From Candidatus Bilamarchaeaceae archaeon (lineage in GTDB: Archaea; Micrarchaeota; Micrarchaeia; Anstonellales; Bilamarchaeaceae), in the NCBI GenBank assembly GCA_038870635.1, contig JAVZJR010000002.1, positions 66,792 through 130,791 on the forward strand: a stretch of DNA of 64,000 nt. The letters run 5' to 3'. This document shows, in pieces, positions 1 through 38,974 of the stretch. The position numbers and the translations under genes are program-made. The notes beneath the pieces were generated by a model. The model did not search any database and had not been told where the DNA came from. It was given only the letters and a program-made list of their open reading frames with translations. Positions within the stretch are counted from its first letter, which is position 1, and every line of letters begins with the position of its first letter.

Positions 1-3000
1 GCAGCAGACGTGCAAAATATTTCTATTATAAATTGTATTATAGGAAATTTCTCTTCTTCTATTATTCTATCAAATGTAAATCATTCTCTATTCAGGAACA
101 ATACATTATATAAGTCTACACATGGTATGCTGATTGATCCATCCTATAACAATACGATAATAGAGAACACTATTTTCGGCAATTCGCAGTATGGTCTTTA
201 TCTTGATGATTCACACAATAATACGATAAGGTACAACATATTTGAAAATAACACAGATAGTGGTTTAAGACTTAATCGTTCAACTAGCAACTTAATTTCT
301 AACAACTCTTTCTATAATAATACAATTGCAATATATCTGGGGATGGGAAGCAATTCAAATAACATAACAGAAAATAATATATCGGTTGGTTCAGATTTAG
401 TTTTATCTTACGAATCCAACAACAACAGGATAATCTCTAATAGAATTTATAATACAGACAGAACCCTCGTGCGTTTAGAATATTCAAATAACACAATAGT
501 TGAAAATAACTCATTAAGCATTTCAAATATGAAATGTCTCTATTTGTATATAACTAATCAGATTACTATTAGGAACAATACTATTATGAATTGTAGCGAG
601 GAGGGCATCTACTTAAGTTTGCCTAATAATTCTGTTATAGATAATAACCATATATTTAATACATCAAATGGTATTTATACTTATTATGCTGAATGGAGCA
701 ATTTTACTAATAATGAAATACATAATAATTCAGTGACAGCAGTCTACTTTGATTTCTCAAAATACCTTATTGTTAGTAACTCAAAAATGTATTACAACAA
801 CTATGGCATTTATTCCTATAATACTTCAAATCTGTCTCTGTTTAATTCAAATCTTTCAAACAATGTTTATAGCGGAGTTGAATTAAGATACAACAATAAT
901 GTAAGTGTTTCAGATAATAATATTAATTCTTCAACAAATGGGATTTTCTTGTATTATACTTCATCTAGTTCTATATCAAACAATTCTATTAGTTCTTCAA
1001 CAGGTATACTCTCCCAGTATTCATATAATAACTTAGTTAAAGAAAATAATATAACCTCATCAAATAATGGTATATCAATCGTACTGTCTAATCATACTAA
1101 TTTTTCAAATAACATCGTATGTAACAACGGAGGTATAGGTTTGAGATTAGCGTATACTAATCAAGTTGTTTCATTTAATGATACTTTTTGTAACAGCGGT
1201 AGCGGCATAGAGGTATATAATTCAAACAATACTAATCTAAATAACACACATCTATACGGGAATGTTTACTTTGAATTACTTATAAGTAGCGATAGTTTTG
1301 CTGTTTATAATTTGACCACTACGAACTTAACCATAGATAACCCAGTAGGCAATTATGAAAACTATACAATATTAGATATTGAAGATATGTACGGTAATCT
1401 TACTTCAGAAGAATCTTATGGAATAAGATGGTCCTCTCAACCTGCTACTTTGCCTAATGATAGGATGAGTTTTAGAAACAAATACGTAAACATTACACAA
1501 GAAGGAGGGGCGGTAAATATTGATAAGATAAGTTGGAGATGGTTTGATAGTGAGTTAAATGGTTATAACGAGAACATGTTTGAACTTTGGAAATACAACA
1601 CATCCGGTTGGGTTAGATTAAATAATACGCCAGATACTGTTAATAATCGACTATCCTTTGTAAATATGAATCCGCTAAGTACGTACGCCATATTACAAAA
1701 TAATAATTGTCCTCTGATAACTTCTGCTGGTTTATACACACAAAACCAAAACTATAGCGGGGCCCCCAACAATGCAGCACCATTAAGCGGGTATGCTTGT
1801 GTAAAAATTACTTCTTCAAACGTTGTATTTGATTGTAATGGCTATTCCATATCAAATAATGGTACGGGTGGTACAACGTATGGTATATTAATTAACGGTT
1901 CTTTGAATAATATAACAATAAAAAATTGTGAAATATCTAGTTATAGATATGGTGTTTTTGTTTATAATTCTAATAATACAAATATCTTTAATAACACTGT
2001 TAAAAATAGTATTGATTACAACATATATATTTATATCGCTCAAGGGGGCTTATTAAATAATAACACATTATATAATAGTACTCGTGGCTTTTATCTATAT
2101 TCCGTTAATGCTTCTGAAATATACAACAATATTATATTTAATCATTCAGCTATTGGTTTTTATGGTAATTCTATAACAAACAATAAAATATATAATAATT
2201 CTATTTATTCAAACACAATCTCAAATTTAATGCTTGATTCAAACTCACAGAATAATTATGTGCTGGATAATTTAATTTATAATAGTAGTCTGAGTCTTTA
2301 TATTTACTCAAGTGATAATAATACTGTTCTAAACAATAGCGCTTACAATTCGGAATATGGCGGTTACATCTATACCTCTAATTACAACAATTTGACTAAT
2401 AACTATTTTTACAATAACGTAGCGGGTTTATTTTTAACTGATTCGCAAGGTACTTACATTTCAGATAATATAGTTTATAATAACTATTATGGTTTTGATT
2501 TTGAAGATTCTGGCAGTGCCTTCAATTATATAAATAACAACACAGTATATAACAATACGATTGGTTGTTTATTATATTCGGTAAGCGGCTTCAAATTTAC
2601 TGATAATGAATTTTATAAAAATACAATCGGCATAGAATTTTCTTCATCAATTTTTAATGATTTACTAAATAACAAGTTTTATAATAACTCACAATATGGG
2701 GTTGATATAAGCTATACTTCATACCTAAATCTAACACAATCTGAAGTGTATAATAATGCTGTTGGCATATTAGTTTATGTTTCAGCTTATGTTCTTATCA
2801 ATAACACCCATTCATATAACAACGAACAACTAGATCTTTTAGTCAGCGCTGACGATAATATATTTTATAATCTTAGCATCTCTAATTTTACTCTTGACAA
2901 TCCTTTAGGCAATTATGAAAACTACACAATATTAGATATCGAAGATATATACGGTAATCTTACTTCAGAAGAAGCTTATGGAATAAGATGGTCCTCTCAA

Positions 3001-6000
3001 CCTGCTACTTTGCCTAATGATAGGATGAGTTTTAGAAACAAATACGTAAACATTACACAAGAAGGAGGGGCGGTAAATATTGATAAGATAAGTTGGGTAT
3101 GGGTCGAGAGTGAATTATCAGGCTATAATGAGAGTAATTTTGAGTTATGGAAATATAACTCTTCCGGGTGGTCATTACTCAATAATACCCCAAACACTAT
3201 TACCAACCGTCTTTCGCTTACAAATCTTAATCCATTATCAACATATGCAATTCTACAAAATTTAGAAATGGAAAACTGTCCAGTGATAATTTCTCCAGGT
3301 ACATATATACAAAATAAAAACTATACCGGTGCACCCAACCCAGTATGGAGTTATGGTGGTTATGCTTGCGTTTACATACAGGCCGAGAATGTAACATTTG
3401 ATTGTAATGGCTATTCTATAATAAACAATGGCACGTCGAACTCGTACGGTATTTTTATAGATGAAACGTCAAGCAATATAACAATAAAGAATTGTAATGT
3501 ATCAAATTATACCTATGGGTTGCTTGGTTACAGTAACGTAAACATCGCTGCATTTAATAACACATTACATTCTAATGAAGTAAGTGGTTTTGCAGCTGAT
3601 GCTACATCAAACATAACTGTTATCAATAATACTATTTATAATAATACTTACTATGGCGTGTACATAATTTCTGGTGCAACAGCGAATTTTGAAAATACTC
3701 TTCTTTATAACAATTTAGAAGATGGAGTATTCGTTGATAACTTTAACAATGTATTTGTAAATAATGTTACATCAAAAGATACGTATGGTGATTGCTTTTT
3801 ATTTACGAACTCAGAAAATATATCTATACATAATATTTCTGCTTCTAATTGTAGTGATGCTGGTGCTTATGGCGGCGGAGTGAAAAATGTTACTATTTCT
3901 AATTCTTCGATAATGCTGTCATCTTACGGTGTATACCTATTCAGTTCACAGAAGATTAACACTAGCGGAAATCAAATTTATAATTTGTCCACGAATAGTT
4001 TTTATGCTATAAACTCTAAAGAAATTTTTATCTTAGATAATTCGATTGTAGATGCTTCCAATGGCATCTACTGGCAAAATGTAACCAACGGTAGTATAAA
4101 AAACAATTACGCGTTTAATTCTTCTTCTTTTTCTAATATTTATTACGCTACCTTTATAAACTTGAATAATAATACATTAAAAAACATTTCTAATAACATA
4201 ATATTTTTATATTCTAATCTATCGAACATCACTCTTAATAACATATATTGTAGAAATACTGCAGGAACTTACGGTCTGTCTGTATCAAACGGATTCGGCT
4301 TTAATGTTGTTGATAACTTTATTATTGGTTGTACTAGTTATGGCATATCATTTTCTGGTGTAGAAAACTCACAGATTAGAAGTAATAATATAAGTGGTGG
4401 CAGCTCTTTAGTATACTTGCAAAGTTCAAATAATAATCTATCTGTAGTAAACAACATTTTGCAAAATTCTATAAATAATGGTTTGATTACAGTTTCTTTA
4501 ACTAATTCTACAATAGAGAACAATACTATATATAATGTTAGTTATTATGCACTCTACTTAACTTCCTCCTCTAATTATAATTTGATTTCATCTAATAAGA
4601 TATATTCGAATAGAAGAGGAATATACAATATATATGTTGATTTCTGTAACTTCACCAATAATGAAATCTATAATAGTTCTGAATATTTGGTATATTCTTC
4701 GTCGTCAAACAACAATCGTTTTATTAATAATTCTATGTACAATAGCACTTCATACGGTGTTCATTTATACAATTCTCAATTCTTTAACTTTACCCATAAC
4801 ACAATCTATGGGACATCAAACCGTGCTTTTACTCTGCAATCTAGTTCAAATAATACGTTATCTAATAACGACATAAAAAGAATTTCTCAAGTGGCGGTTT
4901 ATTTGTACGCTAACTCTAGTGATAATCTATTTATCGATAATACCATTCACGATAACACTAACTACGCTTTTTACGTTTATCAAAATTCAGTTAACAACAC
5001 ATTTTACAATAACACATTATTCAACAATTCTTATGGATTTTTTATACTGAACTCAAACTTCCAGAACATAGATCATTGTAATATATATAATAATACTCAA
5101 ATAGGTGTTCAATTTTCTAATTCAAATTATAGCATTATTAGTAATTCTATGATTTATAACAATACAAATCATGGCGTATCAATTGGTAGTTCTAGTAACA
5201 TAATTATTACAAACACAACTATCCATAACCATAATTATCACGGAATAGTGTTGTCATCATCTGATTATAACAACATAACAAACAATACGGTGTACAACAA
5301 TAATTGGCATGGTATCTACGTGCAGTTTTCCAACAATACTGTTATTGTTAATAATACAATATACAAAAACTCGCAAAATGGTATATACTTAACAAGCAGT
5401 CACAATGCAATAATTTCTGATAACAATGTCACCAATAATAGTGTTTATGGTATATTCTTTTCTTCATCCAATTTAAACACAATGTCTGATAATTACGTAT
5501 GTTTCAACACCCTTGACATAAATAACTCCGGAAGCAGTAATATAGGTGCATATGACAGATGTGATAAATGGTATAATTGGTTTGAGAATAGTCATCCCGG
5601 TTGTACTTTCACATGCTCTAAGATATGGCACAGGTTCTTTGGCAATGTGAGCGGTAATATCCTTCTTGCTCCAAATGAAACATCGATTTTCTATAACTGG
5701 ACATGGAATACAAATAAGGGAAAAGTCTATGTTATAAACGGAGATGCTGTAATTGACTGGGCAGCTGTTTTTGCATTGGGCAGAAATATATCTGAACAAA
5801 ACTCAACAAACGATTTTGCAGAATTAAATAACTTACTTAATATGGGGGACGAATATGACAATCTCACTAATCTTTACTCTTATGATGGCAGTAATCCATT
5901 GATAACAAAGAATATTTCTGTTTATGGAAAAATGATTAATTTTATACCACTTGCAAATTCATCTTATCAAACCGCAGGGGTTCACTACACCGGCATAATG

Positions 6001-6174
6001 TGGGATTCATCGCAAGGAGGGCCTGAATTTAGTCAAGCCCAAAACCAAGATGTGATTTTTGTTAATGAGATCAACGGAAGTTATGACCCACAATATGATA
6101 TAAGAGTTCCAGCAGAGTTGGGTACGTACAAAGGAACAAGCGGTGTTGTTGAGTTTTGGTTAGAATTAGATTGA
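1..6174 (+). CDS. Giant secreted parallel beta-helix (PbH1/NosD-like) repeat surface protein; 5' end lies outside the window
   Basis: The frame is open from nt 1 (no stop upstream of the ORF-caller GTG at 10) to TGA 6172-6174. It encodes >2050 aa of ~22-residue N/S/T/Y/I-rich coils (e.g. NNTIYNNTYYGVYI) typical of right-handed beta-helix repeats. A recurring cap motif is present: CP.I.S.G.Y.QN.NY.GAPN..ACV.I...V.FDCNGYSI.NNG. Family call by eye. Confidence 0.8.
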   Translation, partial: AADVQNISIINCIIGNFSSSIILSNVNHSLFRNNTLYKSTHGMLIDPSYNNTIIENTIFGNSQYGLYLDDSHNNTIRYNIFENNTDSGLRLNRSTSNLISNNSFYNNTIAIYLGMGSNSNNITENNISVGSDLVLSYESNNNRIISNRIYNTDRTLVRLEYSNNTIVENNSLSISNMKCLYLYITNQITIRNNTIMNCSEEGIYLSLPNNSVIDNNHIFNTSNGIYTYYAEWSNFTNNEIHNNSVTAVYFDFSKYLIVSNSKMYYNNYGIYSYNTSNLSLFNSNLSNNVYSGVELRYNNNVSVSDNNINSSTNGIFLYYTSSSSISNNSISSSTGILSQYSYNNLVKENNITSSNNGISIVLSNHTNFSNNIVCNNGGIGLRLAYTNQVVSFNDTFCNSGSGIEVYNSNNTNLNNTHLYGNVYFELLISSDSFAVYNLTTTNLTIDNPVGNYENYTILDIEDMYGNLTSEESYGIRWSSQPATLPNDRMSFRNKYVNITQEGGAVNIDKISWRWFDSELNGYNENMFELWKYNTSGWVRLNNTPDTVNNRLSFVNMNPLSTYAILQNNNCPLITSAGLYTQNQNYSGAPNNAAPLSGYACVKITSSNVVFDCNGYSISNNGTGGTTYGILINGSLNNITIKNCEISSYRYGVFVYNSNNTNIFNNTVKNSIDYNIYIYIAQGGLLNNNTLYNSTRGFYLYSVNASEIYNNIIFNHSAIGFYGNSITNNKIYNNSIYSNTISNLMLDSNSQNNYVLDNLIYNSSLSLYIYSSDNNTVLNNSAYNSEYGGYIYTSNYNNLTNNYFYNNVAGLFLTDSQGTYISDNIVYNNYYGFDFEDSGSAFNYINNNTVYNNTIGCLLYSVSGFKFTDNEFYKNTIGIEFSSSIFNDLLNNKFYNNSQYGVDISYTSYLNLTQSEVYNNAVGILVYVSAYVLINNTHSYNNEQLDLLVSADDNIFYNLSISNFTLDNPLGNYENYTILDIEDIYGNLTSEEAYGIRWSSQPATLPNDRMSFRNKYVNITQEGGAVNIDKISWVWVESELSGYNESNFELWKYNSSGWSLLNNTPNTITNRLSLTNLNPLSTYAILQNLEMENCPVIISPGTYIQNKNYTGAPNPVWSYGGYACVYIQAENVTFDCNGYSIINNGTSNSYGIFIDETSSNITIKNCNVSNYTYGLLGYSNVNIAAFNNTLHSNEVSGFAADATSNITVINNTIYNNTYYGVYIISGATANFENTLLYNNLEDGVFVDNFNNVFVNNVTSKDTYGDCFLFTNSENISIHNISASNCSDAGAYGGGVKNVTISNSSIMLSSYGVYLFSSQKINTSGNQIYNLSTNSFYAINSKEIFILDNSIVDASNGIYWQNVTNGSIKNNYAFNSSSFSNIYYATFINLNNNTLKNISNNIIFLYSNLSNITLNNIYCRNTAGTYGLSVSNGFGFNVVDNFIIGCTSYGISFSGVENSQIRSNNISGGSSLVYLQSSNNNLSVVNNILQNSINNGLITVSLTNSTIENNTIYNVSYYALYLTSSSNYNLISSNKIYSNRRGIYNIYVDFCNFTNNEIYNSSEYLVYSSSSNNNRFINNSMYNSTSYGVHLYNSQFFNFTHNTIYGTSNRAFTLQSSSNNTLSNNDIKRISQVAVYLYANSSDNLFIDNTIHDNTNYAFYVYQNSVNNTFYNNTLFNNSYGFFILNSNFQNIDHCNIYNNTQIGVQFSNSNYSIISNSMIYNNTNHGVSIGSSSNIIITNTTIHNHNYHGIVLSSSDYNNITNNTVYNNNWHGIYVQFSNNTVIVNNTIYKNSQNGIYLTSSHNAIISDNNVTNNSVYGIFFSSSNLNTMSDNYVCFNTLDINNSGSSNIGAYDRCDKWYNWFENSHPGCTFTCSKIWHRFFGNVSGNILLAPNETSIFYNWTWNTNKGKVYVINGDAVIDWAAVFALGRNISEQNSTNDFAELNNLLNMGDEYDNLTNLYSYDGSNPLITKNISVYGKMINFIPLANSSYQTAGVHYTGIMWDSSQGGPEFSQAQNQDVIFVNEINGSYDPQYDIRVPAELGTYKGTSGVVEFWLELD
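1347..1536 (+). repeat. Intragenic repeat copy A (partner 2907-3096, offset 1560 bp)
   Basis: Hand alignment gives 190 bp with 4 mismatches (1365, 1380, 1389, 1414). This includes a 122-bp perfect run, 1415-1536 = 2975-3096. Flanking sequence is only loosely similar. Confidence 0.9.
2907..3096 (+). repeat. Intragenic repeat copy B (partner 1347-1536)
   Basis: Same alignment as copy A. Both copies encode ...GNYENYTILDIED.YGNLTSEE.YGIRWSSQPATLPNDRMSFRNKYVNITQEGGAVNIDKISW... Confidence 0.9.
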
Positions 6175-6227
6175 AGAGCGATACATAATTTTAGTTTTAC
6201 AAAAATAAAAAAATAAAAATTTTAGGT

Positions 6228-6887
6228 TTACGCCAATTCCAACCAGAAGTAGTATGTTTCTGTTGCGCCTAAGGCTGCATTTGTTGCAGTAAGTAATTCG
6301 TAATCGCCATTTTGGCCATTAAATAAGGGTACGTTGTTTTGTATTGTTGTACAGAACGCAACATCGCTTTTTGCAGCTGGTGTGTCACTATCTGCAATTG
6401 CACATGTTGTTAATGAACCACCAGTTGTTGTACCTACACTGTTTGTTACGGATTGATTATTGACTACTATGTTGCATGAAGTAGTGAGTGTGTTTGCTGC
6501 ATTATCTGTCGCTGTGCCAAAACCCCAAATAGTATCAACTGCAGTTGCTGTTATCGGCTTAAGATTTGTCCAATCAAAACCAGTTTGTGCAGCTACTGCG
6601 CACACTACTCCTCCGTTTGCAGGTGACCAAGACCACGAGTAAAATATAGCTGTGGTGTTTGGTGCAAGCACAATGTTTCCTGCCACATCACCCCAGAAAC
6701 CTGCCCACTTTTCTGTGGATACATTACCAGTTAGGTTTAACTGAGTGACATTACCGCCCTCTGTTGTGACGTTGGCATGTGTTAATGGTTCGTATCTACC
6801 GATTTGCCCAACTGTCCACGTTTCGGCCGGTTGAATGGCAAAAGCATAAGCCATTACCAACGACAAAATCAAAAAAATTTTTTTCAT
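6228..6887 (-). CDS. Small secreted protein consisting of the unassigned ~180-aa W-G-F-W-G domain (paralog of the C-terminus of the giant protein)
   Basis: N-terminal signal-like MKKIFLILSLVMAYAFA. KWAGFWGDVAGNIVLAPNTTAIFYSWSW aligns with IWHRFFGNVSGNILLAPNETSIFYNWTW of the 1-6174 protein. Both end in FWLEL[AD]. The gene is visibly more GC-rich and A/T/G-rich than its neighbours. Confidence 0.75.
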   Translation of the reverse strand: MKKIFLILSLVMAYAFAIQPAETWTVGQIGRYEPLTHANVTTEGGNVTQLNLTGNVSTEKWAGFWGDVAGNIVLAPNTTAIFYSWSWSPANGGVVCAVAAQTGFDWTNLKPITATAVDTIWGFGTATDNAANTLTTSCNIVVNNQSVTNSVGTTTGGSLTTCAIADSDTPAAKSDVAFCTTIQNNVPLFNGQNGDYELLTATNAALGATETYYFWLELA

Positions 6888-6986
6888 ACTATATCACCAC
6901 GTTTTTCGAAAAACCAAAAAAACATCTCCTGATAAATTTATAAATGTTGTTTTTGCTTATTAATGTTGTCTAAGTAGAGGGAGTTT

Positions 6987-8636
6987 ATGAAAAATGTGTT
7001 TTTGTTCTTATTACTTCTTATGGGGCAACTTTTTGCAGCAGTGATTGTTAATTCGCTTGATGGCCGTGATGTAATCTCTGCTACCTACTACGCTGCATTA
7101 ATTGGCGAAAAAATAGTGATTGCTTACCCAGATTCTGATTTACAAAATATTTTTTCTTCTGTAGGAGTTAATGAGAATGTTTTTTTAGTACAATCAGAGA
7201 AAAATCCTGTTTTTGTAGGTCTTGCGGATTCTCTCAAACAGAGAGAAAATAAAGTAACACTTTTTGTTTCTAAAGATCCATTTGAAACAAATCTAGAGCT
7301 TGCAAAGAAGAGTGGTGTTAAAAGATTAATCTTAATTGATCCGATATATGGGTATAACACAGTTTCAACCCTTGCATATGGAAAACAAAATAAGATGTTC
7401 TTGATATTTGTGAGTAAAGAGAATTTAGACAAAGCAACCGAAACAATTAATAGCATTAAACCAAACGAGGTTTTGATTTACGGATATGTCGATAAAGAAA
7501 TCAAGGACGCGCTCTCCAAAAATGCAATCGCATACAAAGAAATAAATAATGGCGATAAATTCGACGATAATATGGAAATTCTTAATTTATACTTTAGCAA
7601 AAATCCATCTAAAAAGCAAGTTATACTTGCAGATGGAAATGGTATAGAAGATACGATTGCAGGTGGCGATGACCCGGTTTTGTTTATTGGTCAAATAGTG
7701 CCTATAAGTGTTTACAATTATTTGAAAGAAAAGGTTGCAAAAGATCAAATAACTGTCGGTTTAGTTGTTGATAAAGATTATTTCCAAACCTCTTATAATC
7801 TTAAACAATCTATAAACCAAGATTTAGGCCAAAAGAAATTTACTGTTTTAGCAAAAATCGGTCAAAGCGCAGGTGGTCAGCAAGGTTCTCCTGCAGCTGT
7901 ACCGCTATTCCCTCTTCGTGGTCCTATAAGTGGTTTAAGTATAGAGAAGGTTGAATATAACACTGCGAAGAAAGCGATTGAAGTTATTTACAAAAACACC
8001 GGCAACGCACAGGAGTATGTAAAATCAACTATTGCAATTTACGTGAATGGTAACAAAGTATCGGTTGTTGGTGATGAAGAACCTTTTATTTTAGATAAAG
8101 GAGCTATTTTTGGTCGTGTTTATCCAATTGATATAGAAGAAGGTGGCATATCAGTAAATATTACTTCGTTTTTCGGTATATCCAAGAAGAACCTTGACAA
8201 TGGTATCATTGGTTATTTTGATGTTGGGAAAGTAGATTATGTAGACAACTCTCAGATAGAGATTACTTCAATAAATGTGGACAAATCGAGCGGAGATATC
8301 GTCGTAGTGTTTACAAATATTGGAAATATCCCAGCTTATTTTAGAGCAGATGTTTTAACGCAGATAAATAATCGCTCAACTAAAATAGAGGACAATGTTG
8401 TATACAGCTTAAAACCAAACGAGGGGAGGGCAGTTAAATTTATAGGAATTGGAAAAGATAGCAACAAGATAATTGCAGGCGCCAATTATGGTTCGCGCGA
8501 AGCTTTTCTTAACAAAAGAGTGGAGAAAGAATATGTAGAAAGTAGCACTGCCTTTAATGAAACTTTGCTTATTGGCTTAGTAATTCTCTTGATCATCATA
8601 GTCGCTGTTTATTTCTTGGTTGGGAAGAAGAAATAG
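6987..8636 (+). CDS. Secreted surface protein with C-terminal transmembrane anchor
   Basis: 549-aa ORF with signal-like MKNVFLFLLLLMGQLFA. The C-terminal tail is LLIGLVILLIIIVAVYFLVGKKK. The middle part resembles CARDB-like beta-sandwich repeats (weak, by eye). Confidence 0.65.
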   Translation: MKNVFLFLLLLMGQLFAAVIVNSLDGRDVISATYYAALIGEKIVIAYPDSDLQNIFSSVGVNENVFLVQSEKNPVFVGLADSLKQRENKVTLFVSKDPFETNLELAKKSGVKRLILIDPIYGYNTVSTLAYGKQNKMFLIFVSKENLDKATETINSIKPNEVLIYGYVDKEIKDALSKNAIAYKEINNGDKFDDNMEILNLYFSKNPSKKQVILADGNGIEDTIAGGDDPVLFIGQIVPISVYNYLKEKVAKDQITVGLVVDKDYFQTSYNLKQSINQDLGQKKFTVLAKIGQSAGGQQGSPAAVPLFPLRGPISGLSIEKVEYNTAKKAIEVIYKNTGNAQEYVKSTIAIYVNGNKVSVVGDEEPFILDKGAIFGRVYPIDIEEGGISVNITSFFGISKKNLDNGIIGYFDVGKVDYVDNSQIEITSINVDKSSGDIVVVFTNIGNIPAYFRADVLTQINNRSTKIEDNVVYSLKPNEGRAVKFIGIGKDSNKIIAGANYGSREAFLNKRVEKEYVESSTAFNETLLIGLVILLIIIVAVYFLVGKKK

Positions 8637-10683
8637 ATTTTTTATTTTCTTTATTTTTATTTCTGCTTTCTTTTAGAATTAGAATCACCAAGCTAAAGAT
8701 AAACTGTAAGATTGCGATATTCGACATTACGCAAATATTGAATACCCAGAAACTTGGTAGTGAAAGGATGATGGGTAAACTGTAATAGATTACACGTTTT
8801 AGTTTTCCCCATTCTAATCTCTTGCCTATAATAAATATTCCAAAAATAGCTAAGATTATAGTAATAACCCAAAGTACGTAATAACTTGGCGCTATCGCAA
8901 ACCAATTAAGCAACATAGGGAAATAGCACATCGCCTTTGCTTCTTCATTTATTTTTATACTTGTTTTTTTTATTATATAACCTGCTTTTGTCGCTATTAT
9001 TATTTTTTCACCAACAGTATCAGGTATATAGATGATCTCGCCGTTTTTATCTGTTTCATACTTTTTGCCATCTATGCTTACTACTGCGCCTTCTATTGGT
9101 TTTCCTTTCGTATCGACTAACTTTATTATGACTCTTTCCCCTATCCATGCTTCTTTTGCCGCGTCTATTCTTCCTAATCTTATAACTGGTAACATTACTC
9201 CACTTTGCGGGTATCCTTCTTTTGATGCTATTATCATTCCATCATATGGTGTTTTTATTCTAGTGAAACCATTTTCGTCGGCAATTGTTTGCATCTCTGA
9301 AGTGAATACATTAGCGTATGGTATAAATTCACCTTTATTATTTATGATTTGAATAAGCAGCTCATTTCCTTCTATTGTTTCGCCTTCAATCAACTTTATT
9401 TGGAGCTCTTTTTGTACACATTTGTTGGATACGCAGTTTTTATTTGATGGGCAATCACTATCCTTGCAACATTCATAAGTGTTGCAGCGATGGTTTTGGA
9501 TATATCCACATTCGCAGATTATTTTTTTACATTGAGCCATTTCGCAAACTTCGTTTTCTGCGCAATCGCTATCTTTTTTGCATAAAACACATTCTTCATT
9601 TTCGCATAAACCACTTTTACACTCCTCCCTTCTTTTACATTTTTCCTTAAAATCTTTTTTTGGCTTACAAAGTCCTTCTTCACAGTAAGAAAACTGGTTG
9701 CATTCTTCATCTTTAATGCATTCTGGTACTATTGTTATCTTAAATTCGTTATAACTTGACGCCACTGCATTTTTTGCATGTACTACCAATACGTATGTAC
9801 CAACTTTATGACCAATTAAAGTAAGATTGACATTTTCTGGTTGCCCTTTATAGAGTTTTGTTATTTTATAAGAAGTGCAATCAAAATAAGAAATACAATC
9901 AAGATAAACATCTACATCATTTTCAATGTAGTAGTCGCCGCTATTCTTTACTGTTACCGGTATCTTTATTTTTTGTCCTATAATCGCCGTAAAGTCAGGT
10001 AATGGTTCTATTTCTATTTTGTGCTTTTTGCCTTCTGTTGGTTTTGTGCCAGGTTGCTGGCAGGTGTAATTTACATCAGCTCGGATAGTGTAATTCATAG
10101 CCGCAGTACCTTTTGGTAGCATTATTTGATAATCATTAAGAGAACCGTTCCATCCTGGTTTATCATTTACTACCTCCGCCACGAAAACAATATTATTATT
10201 GGCGTCATTTAGGTATCCTATTCTGAAATTATCAGAAGAGGTATTATTTACATAGGTGTAGGTAGTTGGAACATTATTATAAGTGCCATAAGTGAGAGTG
10301 AAATTGGTTATGTTTTTGAATGTGTTTGTTCCGTTTTCTGTGCCCGAAATCAATGAATCAAGAATAGACAAATTACCTGCCTTGAGTGGTAAGAAAATAT
10401 TGCTTGAATTCACAGCAATTATATGTATTTTAATCGTATTGTAAATGCACGGCGGGTTTTGAGCGATTATATTTATTTCAGTTATGTTGTTTCCAGTTAC
10501 AGTATGATTGTATACCACTCCATTTCCTAGTAAGACATTTCCGTATACTCCATCCCAATAGGTAGAGTTAGAAAAGATAGTAAATGTTGTTTGAGTTGTG
10601 TTTCCGCCATCTATATTTAATTGAGAATAAACTAGTGAAATCATTAAAAGAAGCAGTAAGTTGGTTTTGATATTATTCATCAT
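8596..10683 (-). CDS. Multidomain surface protein: W-G-x-Y-G domain, CARDB-like domain, Cys-rich modules, CarboxypepD_reg-like domains, polytopic C-terminal membrane region
   Basis: The ORF-track start at 10719 is probably too long. ATG ATG at 10683/10680 precedes the signal-like NNIKTNLLLLLMISLVYSQ. Cys-rich block at aa 333-436. The motif VDTKGKPIEGAVVSIDGKKYETDKNGEI looks CarboxypepD_reg-like. Three hydrophobic segments lie at the C-terminus. Confidence 0.7.
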   Translation of the reverse strand: MMNNIKTNLLLLLMISLVYSQLNIDGGNTTQTTFTIFSNSTYWDGVYGNVLLGNGVVYNHTVTGNNITEINIIAQNPPCIYNTIKIHIIAVNSSNIFLPLKAGNLSILDSLISGTENGTNTFKNITNFTLTYGTYNNVPTTYTYVNNTSSDNFRIGYLNDANNNIVFVAEVVNDKPGWNGSLNDYQIMLPKGTAAMNYTIRADVNYTCQQPGTKPTEGKKHKIEIEPLPDFTAIIGQKIKIPVTVKNSGDYYIENDVDVYLDCISYFDCTSYKITKLYKGQPENVNLTLIGHKVGTYVLVVHAKNAVASSYNEFKITIVPECIKDEECNQFSYCEEGLCKPKKDFKEKCKRREECKSGLCENEECVLCKKDSDCAENEVCEMAQCKKIICECGYIQNHRCNTYECCKDSDCPSNKNCVSNKCVQKELQIKLIEGETIEGNELLIQIINNKGEFIPYANVFTSEMQTIADENGFTRIKTPYDGMIIASKEGYPQSGVMLPVIRLGRIDAAKEAWIGERVIIKLVDTKGKPIEGAVVSIDGKKYETDKNGEIIYIPDTVGEKIIIATKAGYIIKKTSIKINEEAKAMCYFPMLLNWFAIAPSYYVLWVITIILAIFGIFIIGKRLEWGKLKRVIYYSLPIILSLPSFWVFNICVMSNIAILQFIFSLVILILKESRNKNKENKKSISSSQPRNKQRL

Positions 10684-10733
10684 TTTTTTATCTGCCTTAT
10701 ATTTATTAATATTTCGCAATCCTAATCCTCTGG

Positions 10734-24460: not shown

Positions 24461-27142
24461 TTATTTGTTTTGATTTTGATTAAATTCTGCCTCCTCATTG
24501 TTCTCGAAATTTTTTATATACCACATTTTTACTAATTGCGTAAGCACAAAATAAGACGCGATTATGATTGGGAGTACTATCCAATAAGTGAGTGGCAATT
24601 CAACAAAACCTAAAGCAGGAGCAAGAGGTGAAAAAACAAGAGCGATGGCTATCACAGATATTGCTACAGACGCAAATAACAATTGAGGGGAGGCCATGCT
24701 TTCTATAAAAGGTATCCTATTTGTTCTTATAATGTGTATGATTAAGCTTTGTGTTATGAGCGATTCTATAAACCAACCAGTATGGAATAATGCCGCTTTT
24801 TCTATTGTGTTCGCACCGATTACAAACCACATAAAACCATAAGTTATGTAATCAAAAATAGAACTTACCGGTCCTATGAATACAATGAAATTTTTTATTT
24901 TATCAAGGTTCCATTTTTTTGGTTTTGATAGCCATTCTTTATCAACGTTATCCGTAGGGATAGCAGTTTGAGAAAGATCATAAAGGAGATTATTTGTTAA
25001 TATCTGGAGAGGAAGCATTGGGAGGAATGGTAATAAAATCGATGCACCAACAACAGAAAACATATTCCCGAAGTTGGAGCTTGCAGCCATTCTGACATAT
25101 TTTACAATATTGCCAAAAACTCGTCTTCCTTCTATTATTCCATCTTCTAATACAAGAAGATTTTTTTCTAATAGTATTACATCAGATGTTTCTTTTGCTA
25201 TATCTACAGCAGAATCAACTGAAATGCCCACATCCGCTGCTTTTAGAGCCGGCGCATCATTTATACCATCCCCAAGATAACCTACTGTATGCTTATTTTT
25301 TTGGAGCGCTCTTATTATTCTTTCTTTGTGCATTGGCGAAAGTTTAACAAATATGTTATTATGTTCAACAGTTATCTTAAGCTCCTCATCATCCATCTTA
25401 TCTATATCATTTCCAAAAACTATTCCTTTTATTTCCATTCCTATATCACGTGCTATTTTTTTAGTGACTAAGTCATTGTCACCGGTCAATATTTTTACTT
25501 CGATACCATTGTCTTTCATTAGTTTTACTGCTTCACTTGCGCTTTCTTTTGGTGGGTCTAAAAATGCAACAAAACCTATTAGGGTCAAATCATTTTCGTC
25601 TTGTATTGAATATATTTTTTTCTCCATTGGTACTTCTTTATAGGCTATTGCTATCACTCTGAACCCATCTTCGCAAAGCGATCTTACTAAGTTTTTCATC
25701 TCTTCAAAGTCATTGGTGGTTGGTTTCCTTTTCTTACCATTGTACTCTACATTTTTTGTTACCTCAAATATTTCCTCCACCGACCCTTTGCATATCAGGA
25801 GCTGTTTTTCATTCTTTTGGTTTACGATAACTGACATTCTCTTTCTTTTAAAGTCCCACGGTATCTCATCTACTTTTGTGTAGTTCTTCATTTGGTGGGT
25901 GAGATTTTTTTGATTACCATATTCTACTACTGATATGTCCATCATATTCTTCAGGCCTGTTTGGTGATAGCTGTTGGTATACGCATAAAGTAATACTTCA
26001 TCGTTTTCATCTCCTCGTATGTCTATGTGTTTTTCCAATATAACGCGCCCTTGTGTTAAGGTGCCTGTTTTATCTGTGCAAAGTATGTCTATGGCACCAA
26101 AATTTTGAATTGAGTTGAGTCTTTTGACTATGACTTTTTTCTCCGCCATTTTTGTTGCTCCCTGTGCAAGGTTAACGCTTACTATCATCGGCAGCATCTC
26201 TGGAGTTAAACCAACTGCAACTGCTATTGCAAAAAGGAGCGCTTCTCCAAGGTCGTTCTTTGTTATTGCGTTTATAAGGAAAATAAGCGGCACCATAACG
26301 AGCATGAATTTTATCATCAAAATTGTGAATCCTTCTATTCCCTTATCGAATTCTGTTTTCACTTGTAGATGCTGAAGGCTTTCTGCTATTGCACCAAAGT
26401 AGGTGTGCTGGCCAGTGGCAATTATAACTGCAGTAGCAGTGCCGCTTTCTACGTTAGTGCCCATAAAACACATATTCTGCAGTTCAAATGGGCTATGCAC
26501 CTCCTTGTGGTCTCGCGGTATTGCGTGTTTCTCAACTGGCAATGCTTCTCCTGTGAGCGTGCATTGATTAACGAAAAGATCTTTTGATTCTATTAACCTG
26601 ACATCTGCTGGCACTATATCTCCTGCGGATAAATATATCACGTCGCCCGGCACAAGGTTAATTATTGGTATTTCTTGCTTTTGTCCATTTCTTATTACTG
26701 TTGCAGTTGTTCTTACCATTGCTTTTAGTTTTTCAGCAGCCTCATCTGCTTTTGTTTCTTGTAAAAATCGCAACAGCACTGCCACTAAAATCATAAATAA
26801 TATTATTATTGTGGATGGAATGTTTTCTGTAAGATATGAAACTATTGCCAACAAAGTGAGGAGGAGGTTCAATGGATTTTTATATGCTTCTATAAGATAG
26901 TCGAGCTTACTTTTTTTAACTATCTTAATCGCTCTGTTTTCGCCATACGCCCTAAGTCTTATCTTCGCTTCTCTGGTCGTTAATCCAGTTGGCGTAGTCT
27001 TAAGTTTTTCAAAAAGGGCGTTTATTTCCATTCCAGATGTTTCTATTATATTGCTTGAAAGTCGGATGTATTTCTCTATTCGTGGTTTGTATTTTTTTTT
27101 CTTTGGCTGTGTTAGAAAATCTAATACGCCCACGTTTCCCAC
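24461..27142 (-). CDS. mgtA: Magnesium-transporting P-type ATPase (MgtA-type)
   Basis: 893 aa. Contains ICTDKTGTLTQ (phosphorylation site), TGDN and GDGINDAPAL. The N-terminal GLTTREAKIRLRAYGEN and overall layout resemble MgtA/MgtB. The exact start is uncertain. Confidence 0.85.
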   Translation of the reverse strand: MGNVGVLDFLTQPKKKKYKPRIEKYIRLSSNIIETSGMEINALFEKLKTTPTGLTTREAKIRLRAYGENRAIKIVKKSKLDYLIEAYKNPLNLLLTLLAIVSYLTENIPSTIIILFMILVAVLLRFLQETKADEAAEKLKAMVRTTATVIRNGQKQEIPIINLVPGDVIYLSAGDIVPADVRLIESKDLFVNQCTLTGEALPVEKHAIPRDHKEVHSPFELQNMCFMGTNVESGTATAVIIATGQHTYFGAIAESLQHLQVKTEFDKGIEGFTILMIKFMLVMVPLIFLINAITKNDLGEALLFAIAVAVGLTPEMLPMIVSVNLAQGATKMAEKKVIVKRLNSIQNFGAIDILCTDKTGTLTQGRVILEKHIDIRGDENDEVLLYAYTNSYHQTGLKNMMDISVVEYGNQKNLTHQMKNYTKVDEIPWDFKRKRMSVIVNQKNEKQLLICKGSVEEIFEVTKNVEYNGKKRKPTTNDFEEMKNLVRSLCEDGFRVIAIAYKEVPMEKKIYSIQDENDLTLIGFVAFLDPPKESASEAVKLMKDNGIEVKILTGDNDLVTKKIARDIGMEIKGIVFGNDIDKMDDEELKITVEHNNIFVKLSPMHKERIIRALQKNKHTVGYLGDGINDAPALKAADVGISVDSAVDIAKETSDVILLEKNLLVLEDGIIEGRRVFGNIVKYVRMAASSNFGNMFSVVGASILLPFLPMLPLQILTNNLLYDLSQTAIPTDNVDKEWLSKPKKWNLDKIKNFIVFIGPVSSIFDYITYGFMWFVIGANTIEKAALFHTGWFIESLITQSLIIHIIRTNRIPFIESMASPQLLFASVAISVIAIALVFSPLAPALGFVELPLTYWIVLPIIIASYFVLTQLVKMWYIKNFENNEEAEFNQNQNK

Positions 27143-36199: not shown

Positions 36200-38974
36200 A
36201 TGAAAGTGAATTTGAAGAAAATCGGTGCCATTGTTGCAGGAGCAACAATTTTGGCAAGCACCGCGGCCTTCGGTGCACTTTGGTACGGAAACACCAAACT
36301 CGTTGACGAGAATGGTGTGCCAGTTGCCAAAGTAGTCGTCGGTGAAAAGGCAGCAGCATCAGATGGTGTGGGAGCTGCTTTGATAGCTTCCAGAATGATG
36401 GCTAGCGCCTATAAAACCGTCGAGTTAAAAGGCCAAGTTGTAGGAACAGCAACATGCACAGGTGGCGAGGGAAGCGGAAGCGGAACCTGCCCAATCTCTG
36501 ATGAGAAAGTAACATTAGAGATTAGCGTTCCAGGTGCAGTTGCAGAAGGAACATACACAATAAACACCTTGATCGGTGATTTCTTAAACAGAAGATTGCT
36601 TGACAGAAAAGCCAATAATGCTAGTGATACTGACGCAGCATATATAATAGGCGGAACAGATGTAAGTGAAAACGCAAACCCATTCACAAATGGTATAGGT
36701 GGGAATATTGGAGTTGGAGAAACTTTCCTTTATAGAGTAACTGGCTCTATGTTTTCACCATTGGCAACAGTTACAGTTAAAGATGACAACGCAGGAAAGA
36801 CCTACAAGGAAGAACAGAACATTTGGATAAAAGGAAAAGTCGAGTACTCTGACTCCGCAAACGAAGTTGTTGGCGAGCCATCATTTTTAGCTTACACACT
36901 TAAGTTCAGCGGCGCAGCAGATGACTTTGGTATTCCTGTATGTACTACTCCAAATGGACAAGACTATAATGCATGTTTGCCAGGTGGAAGCCAACCGAAC
37001 ATTGATTATGCAACGTCAACACACAAGGTTGCAGTTAAGTTTTTGGGTGAAGACTGGATAATAAGTGAAATGACTCCACCAGAAGGAGGGGGTAGTGAAA
37101 CTGAGATTTATTCAGGAGGTTCCATAAAATTAGCAAAAGAAGCAATATCTGGTTTAGTAAACCAAGGTGAATCACTTCCAGTGGACAATCTTAAGTTCCA
37201 CTTAGACGACTTGGAAGCACACGGCGATACAACCTCTGCTATTTTGTCTGTTCTTGATGCAAACGACAACATCTTAAAGAAAGACAAAGTAAACCCTGGT
37301 GAAACAAAAGAGTTTAACATAAATGGTAAACTCTACAGAGTGCACGTTTACAAAGTTGCTCCTGGTTATACTTTTGGTGCAAAATGGGCAGACATGGCAA
37401 TTTATGCAAAAGAATTGAAACTTGAAGACGGTCAAAAACTTGACCCAGACTATGACAACAACAAAGAATACCAAGTTATTCTTGGTTGGAAAGACAGAGG
37501 TGCAGATAATAGCACTGACCACTTAAGAACAATTATTCTATACGGTGATGACATTAGTGCTTTATCAAGCGGCGGAGACCAAAAAATGTCAAAAGGTGAC
37601 TACATACCAATTGTTCAAGACCCAGTTGCATGGAAACTTACCTATGCTGGTTTAGATATAACAAATGCTGACAGGAGTTCGCTTAAATTTACACTTGAAA
37701 GAACAACTGATTACGTAATATCCTCAACAAAAGGTCCATTGTCTGGCGGTGTAAGAGAACAATGTACTATATTCGCACCTTACGTTAAAGTAACAAGCGG
37801 AAAGAGTGGAAGCGTATTTGAATTGGATGGTATTGATGGTGACAACAATGCTACTTTGGCGGATAATGCCTTCTATGTTGCTACTAGTGGTGCCAACTGC
37901 ACCGACAGTGGTGATAAAACAGACGGTACTGTATTTATGAAATTGTCCCCAACAAGCCAATACTTCGGTTATTATCAATACGATGATGCTACACCTGAAT
38001 CTACTGTGGTTAGGTATAGCACAGCAGGTGATGGTGACACATCTTGGGATGTTGGTGGTGTAATAGAAATCGCTAAATACAATGATGCAATCACAGCTGG
38101 CCGATCATTTATGGGTGATAACCGTGGTGGTACTGGCCCGAGCTTTGGTACAGATAACTTAACCGAATCAGGTTCAGCAACAGACTTTTACTTTGCAATA
38201 TCTGAAAAAGCAGGTGTTGATACATCAAACAACTTTGCAGACTATATACTCTTTGGTCTTGACCTCAACGGTGCTTCATCAACATTCAACTATGATACCC
38301 AAACAAGTACAGGGAATTATATAACTAAGAAAGACTATGTGCTCTATAGGTATGCTGGTCCAGTAACCACAGGTATTAATACTGCTGAAGAAGGCTTTGT
38401 AACAGAAAGAGGCACTATATTCAATAGCATAGATGACACAACAGTAAGCTTCAGCATGGCAAACAAGCTTGCAAAGGCTCAATTCACATTGACCTCTAGC
38501 ACAGCAGGAGGCTCAACAGAAAGCACCTGCCAAGCAACATTGCCAGAGGGTGGTGAATACACCTGCAGCGGTGTTAAAGTTAAAGTAACCAAGATAGACG
38601 AAACAGTTGGTGCATGCTCTGCTTCTGGTGCATCAGCAACCTGCAAGCCAGACATGACTGGTGTAAGCGCAAAGGTTGTTGACGCAACTGGTGCAGAAGT
38701 AACAAAAGCATACATACCAGCTGCAAACGCATACAAGGGCTTGGTTATCCTTGACAGAGACGCAGCAGGCGTTAACACCTTGATATCCGTCGGTGGTGAC
38801 AAGGTCAACTCAGTTACTGCATCTCTTCTTGAGAGCTCTCCAGTTGAATGGACTCCTGGCACAAAGATAGTGAAGGAAGTCGTTCAAGGCTCCAAGATAG
38901 TTGTTGCTGGTACTGAGGCAGAAGACACCCTTGCAGCAGTCAGCGACTTCATTGCAGCAGTTAAAGAGGCGTAA
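36200..38974 (+). CDS. S-layer protein (Methanococcales-type S_layer_MJ family)
   Basis: 924 aa. LKKIGAIVAGATILASTAAFG is the signal typical of this family. The protein is T/G/A/D-rich and low in Cys. The C-terminus is ..KIVVAGTEAEDTLAAVSDFIAAVKEA. The gene is clearly GC-richer than its surroundings and is followed by strong T-tracts. Confidence 0.8.
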   Translation: MKVNLKKIGAIVAGATILASTAAFGALWYGNTKLVDENGVPVAKVVVGEKAAASDGVGAALIASRMMASAYKTVELKGQVVGTATCTGGEGSGSGTCPISDEKVTLEISVPGAVAEGTYTINTLIGDFLNRRLLDRKANNASDTDAAYIIGGTDVSENANPFTNGIGGNIGVGETFLYRVTGSMFSPLATVTVKDDNAGKTYKEEQNIWIKGKVEYSDSANEVVGEPSFLAYTLKFSGAADDFGIPVCTTPNGQDYNACLPGGSQPNIDYATSTHKVAVKFLGEDWIISEMTPPEGGGSETEIYSGGSIKLAKEAISGLVNQGESLPVDNLKFHLDDLEAHGDTTSAILSVLDANDNILKKDKVNPGETKEFNINGKLYRVHVYKVAPGYTFGAKWADMAIYAKELKLEDGQKLDPDYDNNKEYQVILGWKDRGADNSTDHLRTIILYGDDISALSSGGDQKMSKGDYIPIVQDPVAWKLTYAGLDITNADRSSLKFTLERTTDYVISSTKGPLSGGVREQCTIFAPYVKVTSGKSGSVFELDGIDGDNNATLADNAFYVATSGANCTDSGDKTDGTVFMKLSPTSQYFGYYQYDDATPESTVVRYSTAGDGDTSWDVGGVIEIAKYNDAITAGRSFMGDNRGGTGPSFGTDNLTESGSATDFYFAISEKAGVDTSNNFADYILFGLDLNGASSTFNYDTQTSTGNYITKKDYVLYRYAGPVTTGINTAEEGFVTERGTIFNSIDDTTVSFSMANKLAKAQFTLTSSTAGGSTESTCQATLPEGGEYTCSGVKVKVTKIDETVGACSASGASATCKPDMTGVSAKVVDATGAEVTKAYIPAANAYKGLVILDRDAAGVNTLISVGGDKVNSVTASLLESSPVEWTPGTKIVKEVVQGSKIVVAGTEAEDTLAAVSDFIAAVKEA

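Follow-up and report, generated by a model that had tools for sequence, protein, structure and literature searches.

A beta-rich domain in three architectural contexts in a micrarchaeal surface-protein locus, a candidate assembly or anchoring module with a linked CWB2-like partner

The CWB2 triad is a known surface-anchoring scaffold. DPANN archaea rely on contact with host cells and their genomes are rich in giant, unannotated surface proteins; to our knowledge, it is not known how these giants are held on the cell. Among fibre systems, archaeal TasA-superfamily loci have been reported to hold tip proteins and membrane anchors (bioRxiv 10.64898/2026.01.04.697558). Here we analyse a stretch of 64,000 nucleotides from a Candidatus Bilamarchaeaceae archaeon of the Micrarchaeota (assembly GCA_038870635.1, contig JAVZJR010000002.1, positions 66,792 to 130,791; hereafter 'the window', from source genome G000), in which one beta-rich domain of ~165-200 residues occurs three times (Table 1): at the C-terminus of a giant secreted protein (D1), as the whole mature part of a stand-alone secreted protein (D2), and near the N-terminus of a membrane-anchored stalk protein of 707 amino acids (aa) (D3). 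A constant domain, variable passengers that lack an anchor of their own, a copy in a transmembrane stalk and a genetically linked transmembrane partner are together most simply explained by an assembly or anchoring module, and we put the probability that the domain is such an extracellular unit, shared within the cell envelope, at roughly 45%.

Shuffled-sequence comparisons and profile-profile matches establish that the three copies are homologous, and between them rule out chance similarity. By direct BLASTP, D2 matches D1 at E=3e-12, restricted to 49 aa, and D3 at E=2e-6 across 186 aa; D1 and D3 have no significant match to each other. When Smith-Waterman scores were set against 500 shuffles, D1-D2 (z=15.5, 0/500) and D2-D3 (z=6.0, 0/500) stood far above shuffled sequences, whereas D1-D3 gave no direct signal (z=1.2, 59/500). 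Profile-profile comparison by hhalign, with signal peptides stripped, used family alignments of 78 stand-alone homologues (A1), of 19 homologues of the N-terminal region of the 707-aa protein and, for D1, of 9 sequences homologous to the C-terminus of the giant together with a second copy that the same genome carries. The stand-alone family aligns with the D1 family over 158 columns up to the last residue (99.0%, E=2.5e-18) and with the D3 family over 163 columns (98.2%, E=5e-14), and the D1 and D3 families align end to end (53%, E=1.3e-4). D1 was also found in the giant by a profile hidden Markov model (HMM; E=1.5e-11). At the sequence level, the relation between D1 and D3 appears to run through the stand-alone family as its sole central link. 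A sequence-only reading of the window had proposed one domain in these three places, and all are present and homologous close to where it had put them: the start of D1 moves from 5632 to 5608 and that of D3 from 10066 to 10069, with the ends (6171 and 10623) unchanged, and D2 is, as it had said, the whole mature 219-aa protein (6228-6887, minus strand).

The copies differ at their N-terminal ends. The start of D1 corresponds to roughly position 55 in the stand-alone protein, and D1 is without the N-terminal 'TTEGGNVT...NxST' block, in place of which stands a Cys-rich linker; in the D3 family the consensus of the ANVTTEGGNVT motif equals that of the stand-alone family letter for letter. Identity within the D1 family (P0103-P0111) is 48-58%, with P0110 and P0111 given at 33%. 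A second beta-helix giant in the source genome, cut by the contig start (G000 C2:1-1764, L025), has the same Cys-rich linker and a D1-type end (...TVTIYLEIE-stop). Elsewhere in the same genome, a 539-aa secreted protein with no transmembrane helix (G000 C1:81024-82643, minus strand, L024) has a weakly D3-like N-terminus (SSGGNIT...YWAG; HMM E=0.012) and may, judging from this resemblance, represent an additional context in which the domain has diverged further; it overlaps by 4 nt the next gene, which encodes a 562-aa CARDB protein (G000 C1:79339-81027, minus strand).

The domain had been described as unassigned, and remains so with respect to Pfam and NCBIfam. The stand-alone protein (P0002) gave nothing at E<=0.1 against either, and when all 79 family members were scanned at E<=10, nothing but scattered chance matches came back. 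Nor did we find a described equivalent in the literature on Micrarchaeota S-layers and on DPANN giant, adhesin or beta-helix proteins. Searched with a profile, 1.84 billion cluster representatives yielded 1,259 proteins at E<=1e-3, each standing for a 50%-identity cluster (938 at E<=1e-10; 201 at E<=1e-30). The domain was detected in 66 of 301 genomes sampled across the phylum, and all 66 belong to the window's class. Two Woesearchaeota proteins (P0110, P0111) carry a D1-type C-terminus behind CARDB and MG2 (alpha-2-macroglobulin) domains, and the domain is therefore not limited to Micrarchaeota. An AlphaFold2 (AF2) model of the stand-alone domain, computed from a 79-sequence alignment (pLDDT 89.3, pTM 0.84), has about eleven strands and two short helices, with residues 19-60 ordered but without regular secondary structure. 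Foldseek searches with this model, covering the PDB and the viral models of BFVD, returned nothing significant (best E=0.79 and E=0.24, respectively). As modelled, the fold is possibly new, and would define a new structural family if it is truly without relatives.

The best PDB sequence matches of the domain are two chains of AbpX, a fibre protein of the TasA superfamily, at a non-significant E=0.07-0.14 over 80 residues. They raise the alternative that the domain is a fibre subunit assembled by donor-strand complementation, as in TasA, AbpX, threads and chaperone-usher pili, with the stand-alone protein forming the shaft, the giants the tip and the 707-aa protein the membrane-proximal base. 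The three contexts do map onto tip, shaft and base, and the reported tip proteins and membrane anchors of archaeal TasA-superfamily loci offer a parallel; D1 is without the N-terminal segment of ~40 residues, as expected of a tip subunit, residues 19-60 are irregular in the stand-alone model, and tandem stand-alone genes occur in several genomes (L019, L020, L021). We nonetheless consider fibre assembly improbable, since it failed every similarity comparison made here. The AbpX alignment misses the TasA core motif, no TasA, AbpA, AbpX, thread or cannula protein was listed by Foldseek against the PDB, and Peptidase_M73 matched 0/79 family members; kinship with TasA or AbpX was accordingly set aside as a lead from the sequence search backed by neither structure nor profiles. 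Full-type fused copies, moreover, keep the N-terminal segment internally, where it is therefore not a free donor strand, and conservation of the mature N-terminus across the wider family is no more than moderate. Next to the stand-alone gene in the fetched clusters, no signal peptidase was conspicuous among the ORFs, in a set of clusters in which ORFs (open reading frames) were partly Pfam-labelled and no signal-peptidase model was searched.

The placement of the domain within proteins follows strict rules. Among the best 150 of the 1,259 cluster representatives, 91 are of stand-alone size (<=300 aa) and 59 are fused to other sequence (1064 aa at the median and 5626 aa at most). Every one of these 59 has no more than 4 residues between the end of the domain and the C-terminus, and the last residues, YYF[WY].EL-stop, are conserved; the same rule is kept in 12 fused proteins of the fetched loci, and D1-type copies, present in 49/301 genomes, are always the last part of their open frames, the longest of which has 7,664 aa. 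In the fetched loci, fused carriers have an N-terminal hydrophobic segment and no C-terminal transmembrane helix, and D3-type copies always lie directly behind the signal peptide of proteins that end in 2-3 transmembrane helices. The parts to which the domain is fused are variable: the passengers in the fetched loci are beta-helix proteins, LamG with F5/8-type-C lectin domains, one protein with no more than a weak Mal s 1-like match and one protein without a Pfam match. Passengers as mutually unrelated as beta-helix, LamG with F5/8-C and Peptidase_S8 are joined to a domain that stays constant at E=1e-45 to 1e-62, and an anchoring tag would be expected to show just this combination of a variable functional part with a constant one.

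The giant of the window is a case in point. Its complete gene (G000 C2:63330-72965) encodes 3211 aa with an N-terminal hydrophobic segment, a Peptidase_S8 domain (294-514), many beta-helix/NosD repeats, the Cys-rich linker and D1; this makes the protein a protease carried by a beta-helix stalk, and more than an adhesin. The Peptidase_S8 (subtilase) domain falls outside the window, in the upstream part of the gene (G000 C2:63330-66791). The stalk protein consists of a signal peptide, D3, a CARDB-like domain, Cys-rich modules, CarboxypepD_reg-like domains and 2-3 C-terminal transmembrane helices. An identical database protein (P0084, a cluster representative of 695 aa) begins at the ATG at 10683, 12 codons past the TTG at 10719, and this ATG is the likelier start of the 707-aa ORF.

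A strict C-terminal position with conserved last residues in 59/59 fused proteins would also be expected of a secretion or sorting domain that is recognised, and perhaps cleaved, by a dedicated machine, in the manner of the C-terminal domain of the type IX secretion system (T9SS CTD) or of sortase- and archaeosortase-like systems. We regard this as very improbable. T9SS CTDs are exclusively C-terminal, while the present domain is also stand-alone and, in the 707-aa family, N-terminal; a sorting signal gives no reason for an abundant stand-alone protein in nearly every genome, nor for an N-terminal place in a mature stalk protein. All carriers already have N-terminal Sec-type signals, and 190-200 aa would be large for a signal.

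The gene neighbourhood points from the giant to a different partner. The sequence-only reading had asked whether the stand-alone gene always lies beside a giant gene, and in related genomes this is not so: the convergent pairing is peculiar to the source genome, and constant pairing with the giant's 3' end was rejected, the far flank in other Micrarchaeota being a CTP-transferase, IF-2 or rpS12. The constant neighbour is instead the family of the 549-aa protein, anchored by a transmembrane helix, with 53 adjacent pairs in 45 genomes, separated by 107 bp at the median. The domain is present in every genome that has the 549-aa family (61/61), and where a genome has two stand-alone paralogues, each comes with its own anchor paralogue. 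The source genome holds such a paralogous pair at a contig end (G000 C3:5-508 and C3:710-1441, L023), in which a stand-alone copy of 244 aa (E=2e-56 to the family) lies beside the N-terminus of a second 549-aa-type anchor. Clusters are of two types: the first, like that of the window, comprises a stand-alone gene, an anchor gene, a gene for a D3 protein of ~700 aa and usually a D1 giant, and the second is a co-directional trio of stand-alone gene, anchor gene and then a gene for a shorter D3-like protein. D1 giants share the locus in many genomes, and the 707-aa family is also positive in 36/49 D1-positive genomes, a count for which three candidates were scored per genome and negatives are unreliable. 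In the window, the 53 bp between the convergent stops of the giant and stand-alone genes (6175-6227), correctly counted before, may form a bidirectional terminator, given T-runs on both strands. The stand-alone and anchor genes diverge from a 99-bp spacer, halfway along which lies a palindromic TATA-like element, TTTATAAA (6937-6944; AAATTTATAAATG at 6933-6946), which on its sequence could act for both promoters.

The 549-aa family matched no Pfam or NCBIfam model (including PF04122) and no PDB sequence. Its AF2 model, built from 4 sequences (pLDDT 72.7), comprises three beta-alpha repeats (18-290), two beta-sandwiches and a C-terminal transmembrane helix. In Foldseek searches the repeats match the high-molecular-weight (HMW) subunit of Clostridioides difficile SlpA (9f8e_B, E=5e-7, TM-score 0.47, 295 columns; 7acz_D, E=2e-5) and Cwp6 (5j72_A, E=2e-6). 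As in CWB2, the model places three tandem alpha/beta repeats in a pseudo-threefold triad, and we speak of a predicted resemblance in fold to CWB2 and not of membership. The CWB2-like triad sits here in a protein of a wall-less archaeon.

The stand-alone protein itself has the make-up of a major structural surface protein. It had been described as encoded by a GC-richer gene of S-layer-like composition, and measurements over the source genome (859 kb, 8 contigs, 751 ORFs, over which ranks are taken) agree: the gene has a GC content of 0.428, where the genome averages 0.352 (sd 0.034), rank 10 of 751 ORFs, equal to that of the S-layer gene of the window (0.427, among the highest in the genome), and the mature protein has the top Ala+Thr+Gly fraction of all 751 proteins (0.381), with 1.5% Lys versus 9.6% genome-wide. 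We infer from this composition that the gene may be highly expressed. The protein has a Sec-type signal peptide (residues 1-17), four Cys and a C-terminal YYFWLELA, and conservation within the stand-alone family is unusually high, with 45-64% identity across families. Four sequons (N39, N46, N51 and N55) fall within 20 residues, in the nearly invariant block ANVTTEGGNVT.LN...N.ST (residues 39-57). Such a pattern points to a conserved cluster of glycans, which the CWB2-like triad might bind as a ligand.

We hypothesize that the stand-alone protein serves as an abundant core subunit, which the product of its obligate gene neighbour, with a CWB2-like triad, two Ig-like domains and a transmembrane helix, keeps at the membrane, and that a homologous copy is presented at the membrane-distal tip of a second transmembrane-anchored protein, the stalk of the 707-aa family. 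Anchorless secreted proteins would join this complex through their C-terminal ~190-200 residues, by homotypic association, by binding to the CWB2-like anchor, or by both. Among the cargoes would be the giant described here, with its S8 protease and beta-helix, and elsewhere LamG/discoidin proteins as well as proteins of up to 5,626 aa (open frames to 7,664 aa), with the variable N-terminal regions acting as functional ends, in adhesion or hydrolysis, and the constant domain as the attachment end. To the homology, architectural rules, gene linkage and predicted folds described above, this scheme would add physical interaction among the proteins, a stoichiometry and high expression of the stand-alone gene. 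The data are compatible with the earlier suggestion of a stand-alone protein that would dock to, cap or compete with the copies on large adhesins, and the candidate partners now include the CWB2-like anchor. In a more specific and rather doubtful form of the proposal, the stand-alone protein, the giant's C-terminus and the stalk's N-terminus would form a single hetero-oligomeric knob of unseen beta fold, encoded together with the CWB2-like anchor, as a homotypic archaeal counterpart of cohesin-dockerin display. If true, such a knob would let DPANN cells mount interchangeable giant adhesins or enzymes on membrane-anchored stalks for host contact.

Several observations weigh against an anchoring or assembly role. 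Fused copies occur without a detected stand-alone gene in some genomes (G291, G064), which incompleteness of metagenome-assembled genomes could explain. Adjacency and co-occurrence are confounded by shared ancestry, all positive genomes being of one class and the events not independent. The partner's likeness to CWB2 is structural only, with no PF04122 match and a model of mediocre confidence. Finally, the domain would be membrane-distal in the stalk, and also in the giants if these are signal-anchored at their N-termini, a geometry that would suit a tip binding a ligand or host just as well.

This last point introduces the main rival, that the domain is a distal-tip binding domain, a lectin or host-receptor binder displayed far from the membrane, which we think unlikely overall. 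It requires that the giant's N-terminal hydrophobic segment be an uncleaved signal anchor, and the stand-alone protein would be carried non-covalently on the CWB2-like anchor. The giant's hydrophobic stretch is indeed long (~22 aa), the positions of transmembrane segments allow the topology, and D3 already lies at the distal N-terminus of its stalk; terminal placement is frequent for carbohydrate-binding modules, the all-beta model has conserved aromatics (W61, W85, W87, W106, W121, F123, F214, W215), and what Foldseek returned as weak neighbours, none of them significant, are fibre knobs and phage receptor-binding proteins. However, no carbohydrate-binding-module or lectin family was matched by profile, or by Foldseek in the PDB and BFVD, and the passengers already hold classic binding modules (LamG, discoidin). 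Host-binding tips usually evolve fast, whereas few surface elements are as well conserved as this domain (45-64%), and a binding tip leaves the near-obligate pairing with the anchor gene unexplained.

Table 1. Positions of the domain copies and neighbouring features in the window
Feature	Position	Strand	Remarks
Giant secreted protein, 3' part	1..6174	+	no C-terminal transmembrane helix
Cys-rich linker before D1 (NYVCFN...DRCDKWYNW.EN.H.GC.F.CS)	5467..5607	+	11 D1-type C-termini aligned; hhalign boundaries
D1, last 188 aa of giant, ending ...VEFWLELD-stop	5608..6171	+	BLASTP, HMM, hhalign
Spacer between convergent stops, 53 bp	6175..6227		A/T-rich, T-runs on both strands
D2, stand-alone 219-aa secreted protein (P0002)	6228..6887	-	signal peptide 1-17, domain 18-219
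Divergent intergenic region, 99 bp, between stand-alone and 549-aa anchor genes	6888..6986		
Partner/anchor protein, 549 aa (P0005)	6987..8636	+	signal peptide, triad ~18-290, two Ig-like beta-sandwiches, transmembrane helix, KKK
Stalk protein, 707-aa ORF (P0003)	8596..10719 from TTG; 8596..10683 from ATG	-	
D3, directly behind stalk signal peptide (QLNIDGGNTTQ...NDYQIMLP...YTIRADVNY)	10069..10623	-	residues 33-217 of the 707-aa ORF
Beta-helix protein, 1048 aa	10831..13977	-	in the surface-protein island; Cys-rich modules, own C-terminal transmembrane helix, no domain copy

Two further genes of the window deserve mention. The S-layer gene used for comparison above encodes a 924-aa protein (36200-38974, plus strand) that matches S_layer_C (PF05124, E=4.6e-10) and TIGR01564 (S_layer_MJ), both above cut-offs, and is a probable S-layer protein. 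Inside what is otherwise an island of surface proteins lies an ordinary gene, on the minus strand at 24461-27142, for a clear Mg2+-translocating P-type ATPase (TIGR01524, score 1130).

The domain defines a previously unannotated family of at least 1,259 clusters, centred on Micrarchaeota, with clear rules of usage and a fixed partner gene. It gives annotators a handle on what would be the cell-attached end of hundreds of giant proteins, and the locus gives a concrete four-protein candidate module for surface display in these archaea.

Among known systems, the T9SS CTD, PGF-CTERM and LPXTG signals share with the domain an obligatory place at the extreme C-terminus of diverse surface proteins, whereas the present domain is much larger and is also found stand-alone and N-terminal. 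Fibres of the TasA superfamily and of the chaperone-usher type likewise employ one fold as a stand-alone protein, as the C-terminal part of large adhesin-like proteins and within an anchored protein, with one locus encoding them all; the present domain, in contrast, shows no significant similarity to them in sequence or structure. The cohesin-dockerin pairs of cellulosomes resemble it in that anchorless secreted proteins bear a terminal module that would fit into a scaffold fixed to the cell; here, in contrast, the modules of cargo and scaffold are homologous, so that the contact would be homotypic, and there is no similarity of sequence or fold. The Cwp family of C. difficile and SlpA H/L differ in that the module shared here is a new beta-rich domain and not CWB2, and in that the CWB2-like triad is found on a transmembrane-anchored archaeal protein, with no cell-wall polymer and no sequence-level match to CWB2. 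They are alike in displaying one constant anchoring module on the main surface protein and on many variable paralogues, in encoding a small and a large partner side by side, and in the structural match between CWB2 triads and the N-terminal triad of the 549-aa protein. By analogy, the function of the domain would be most like that of known anchoring modules.

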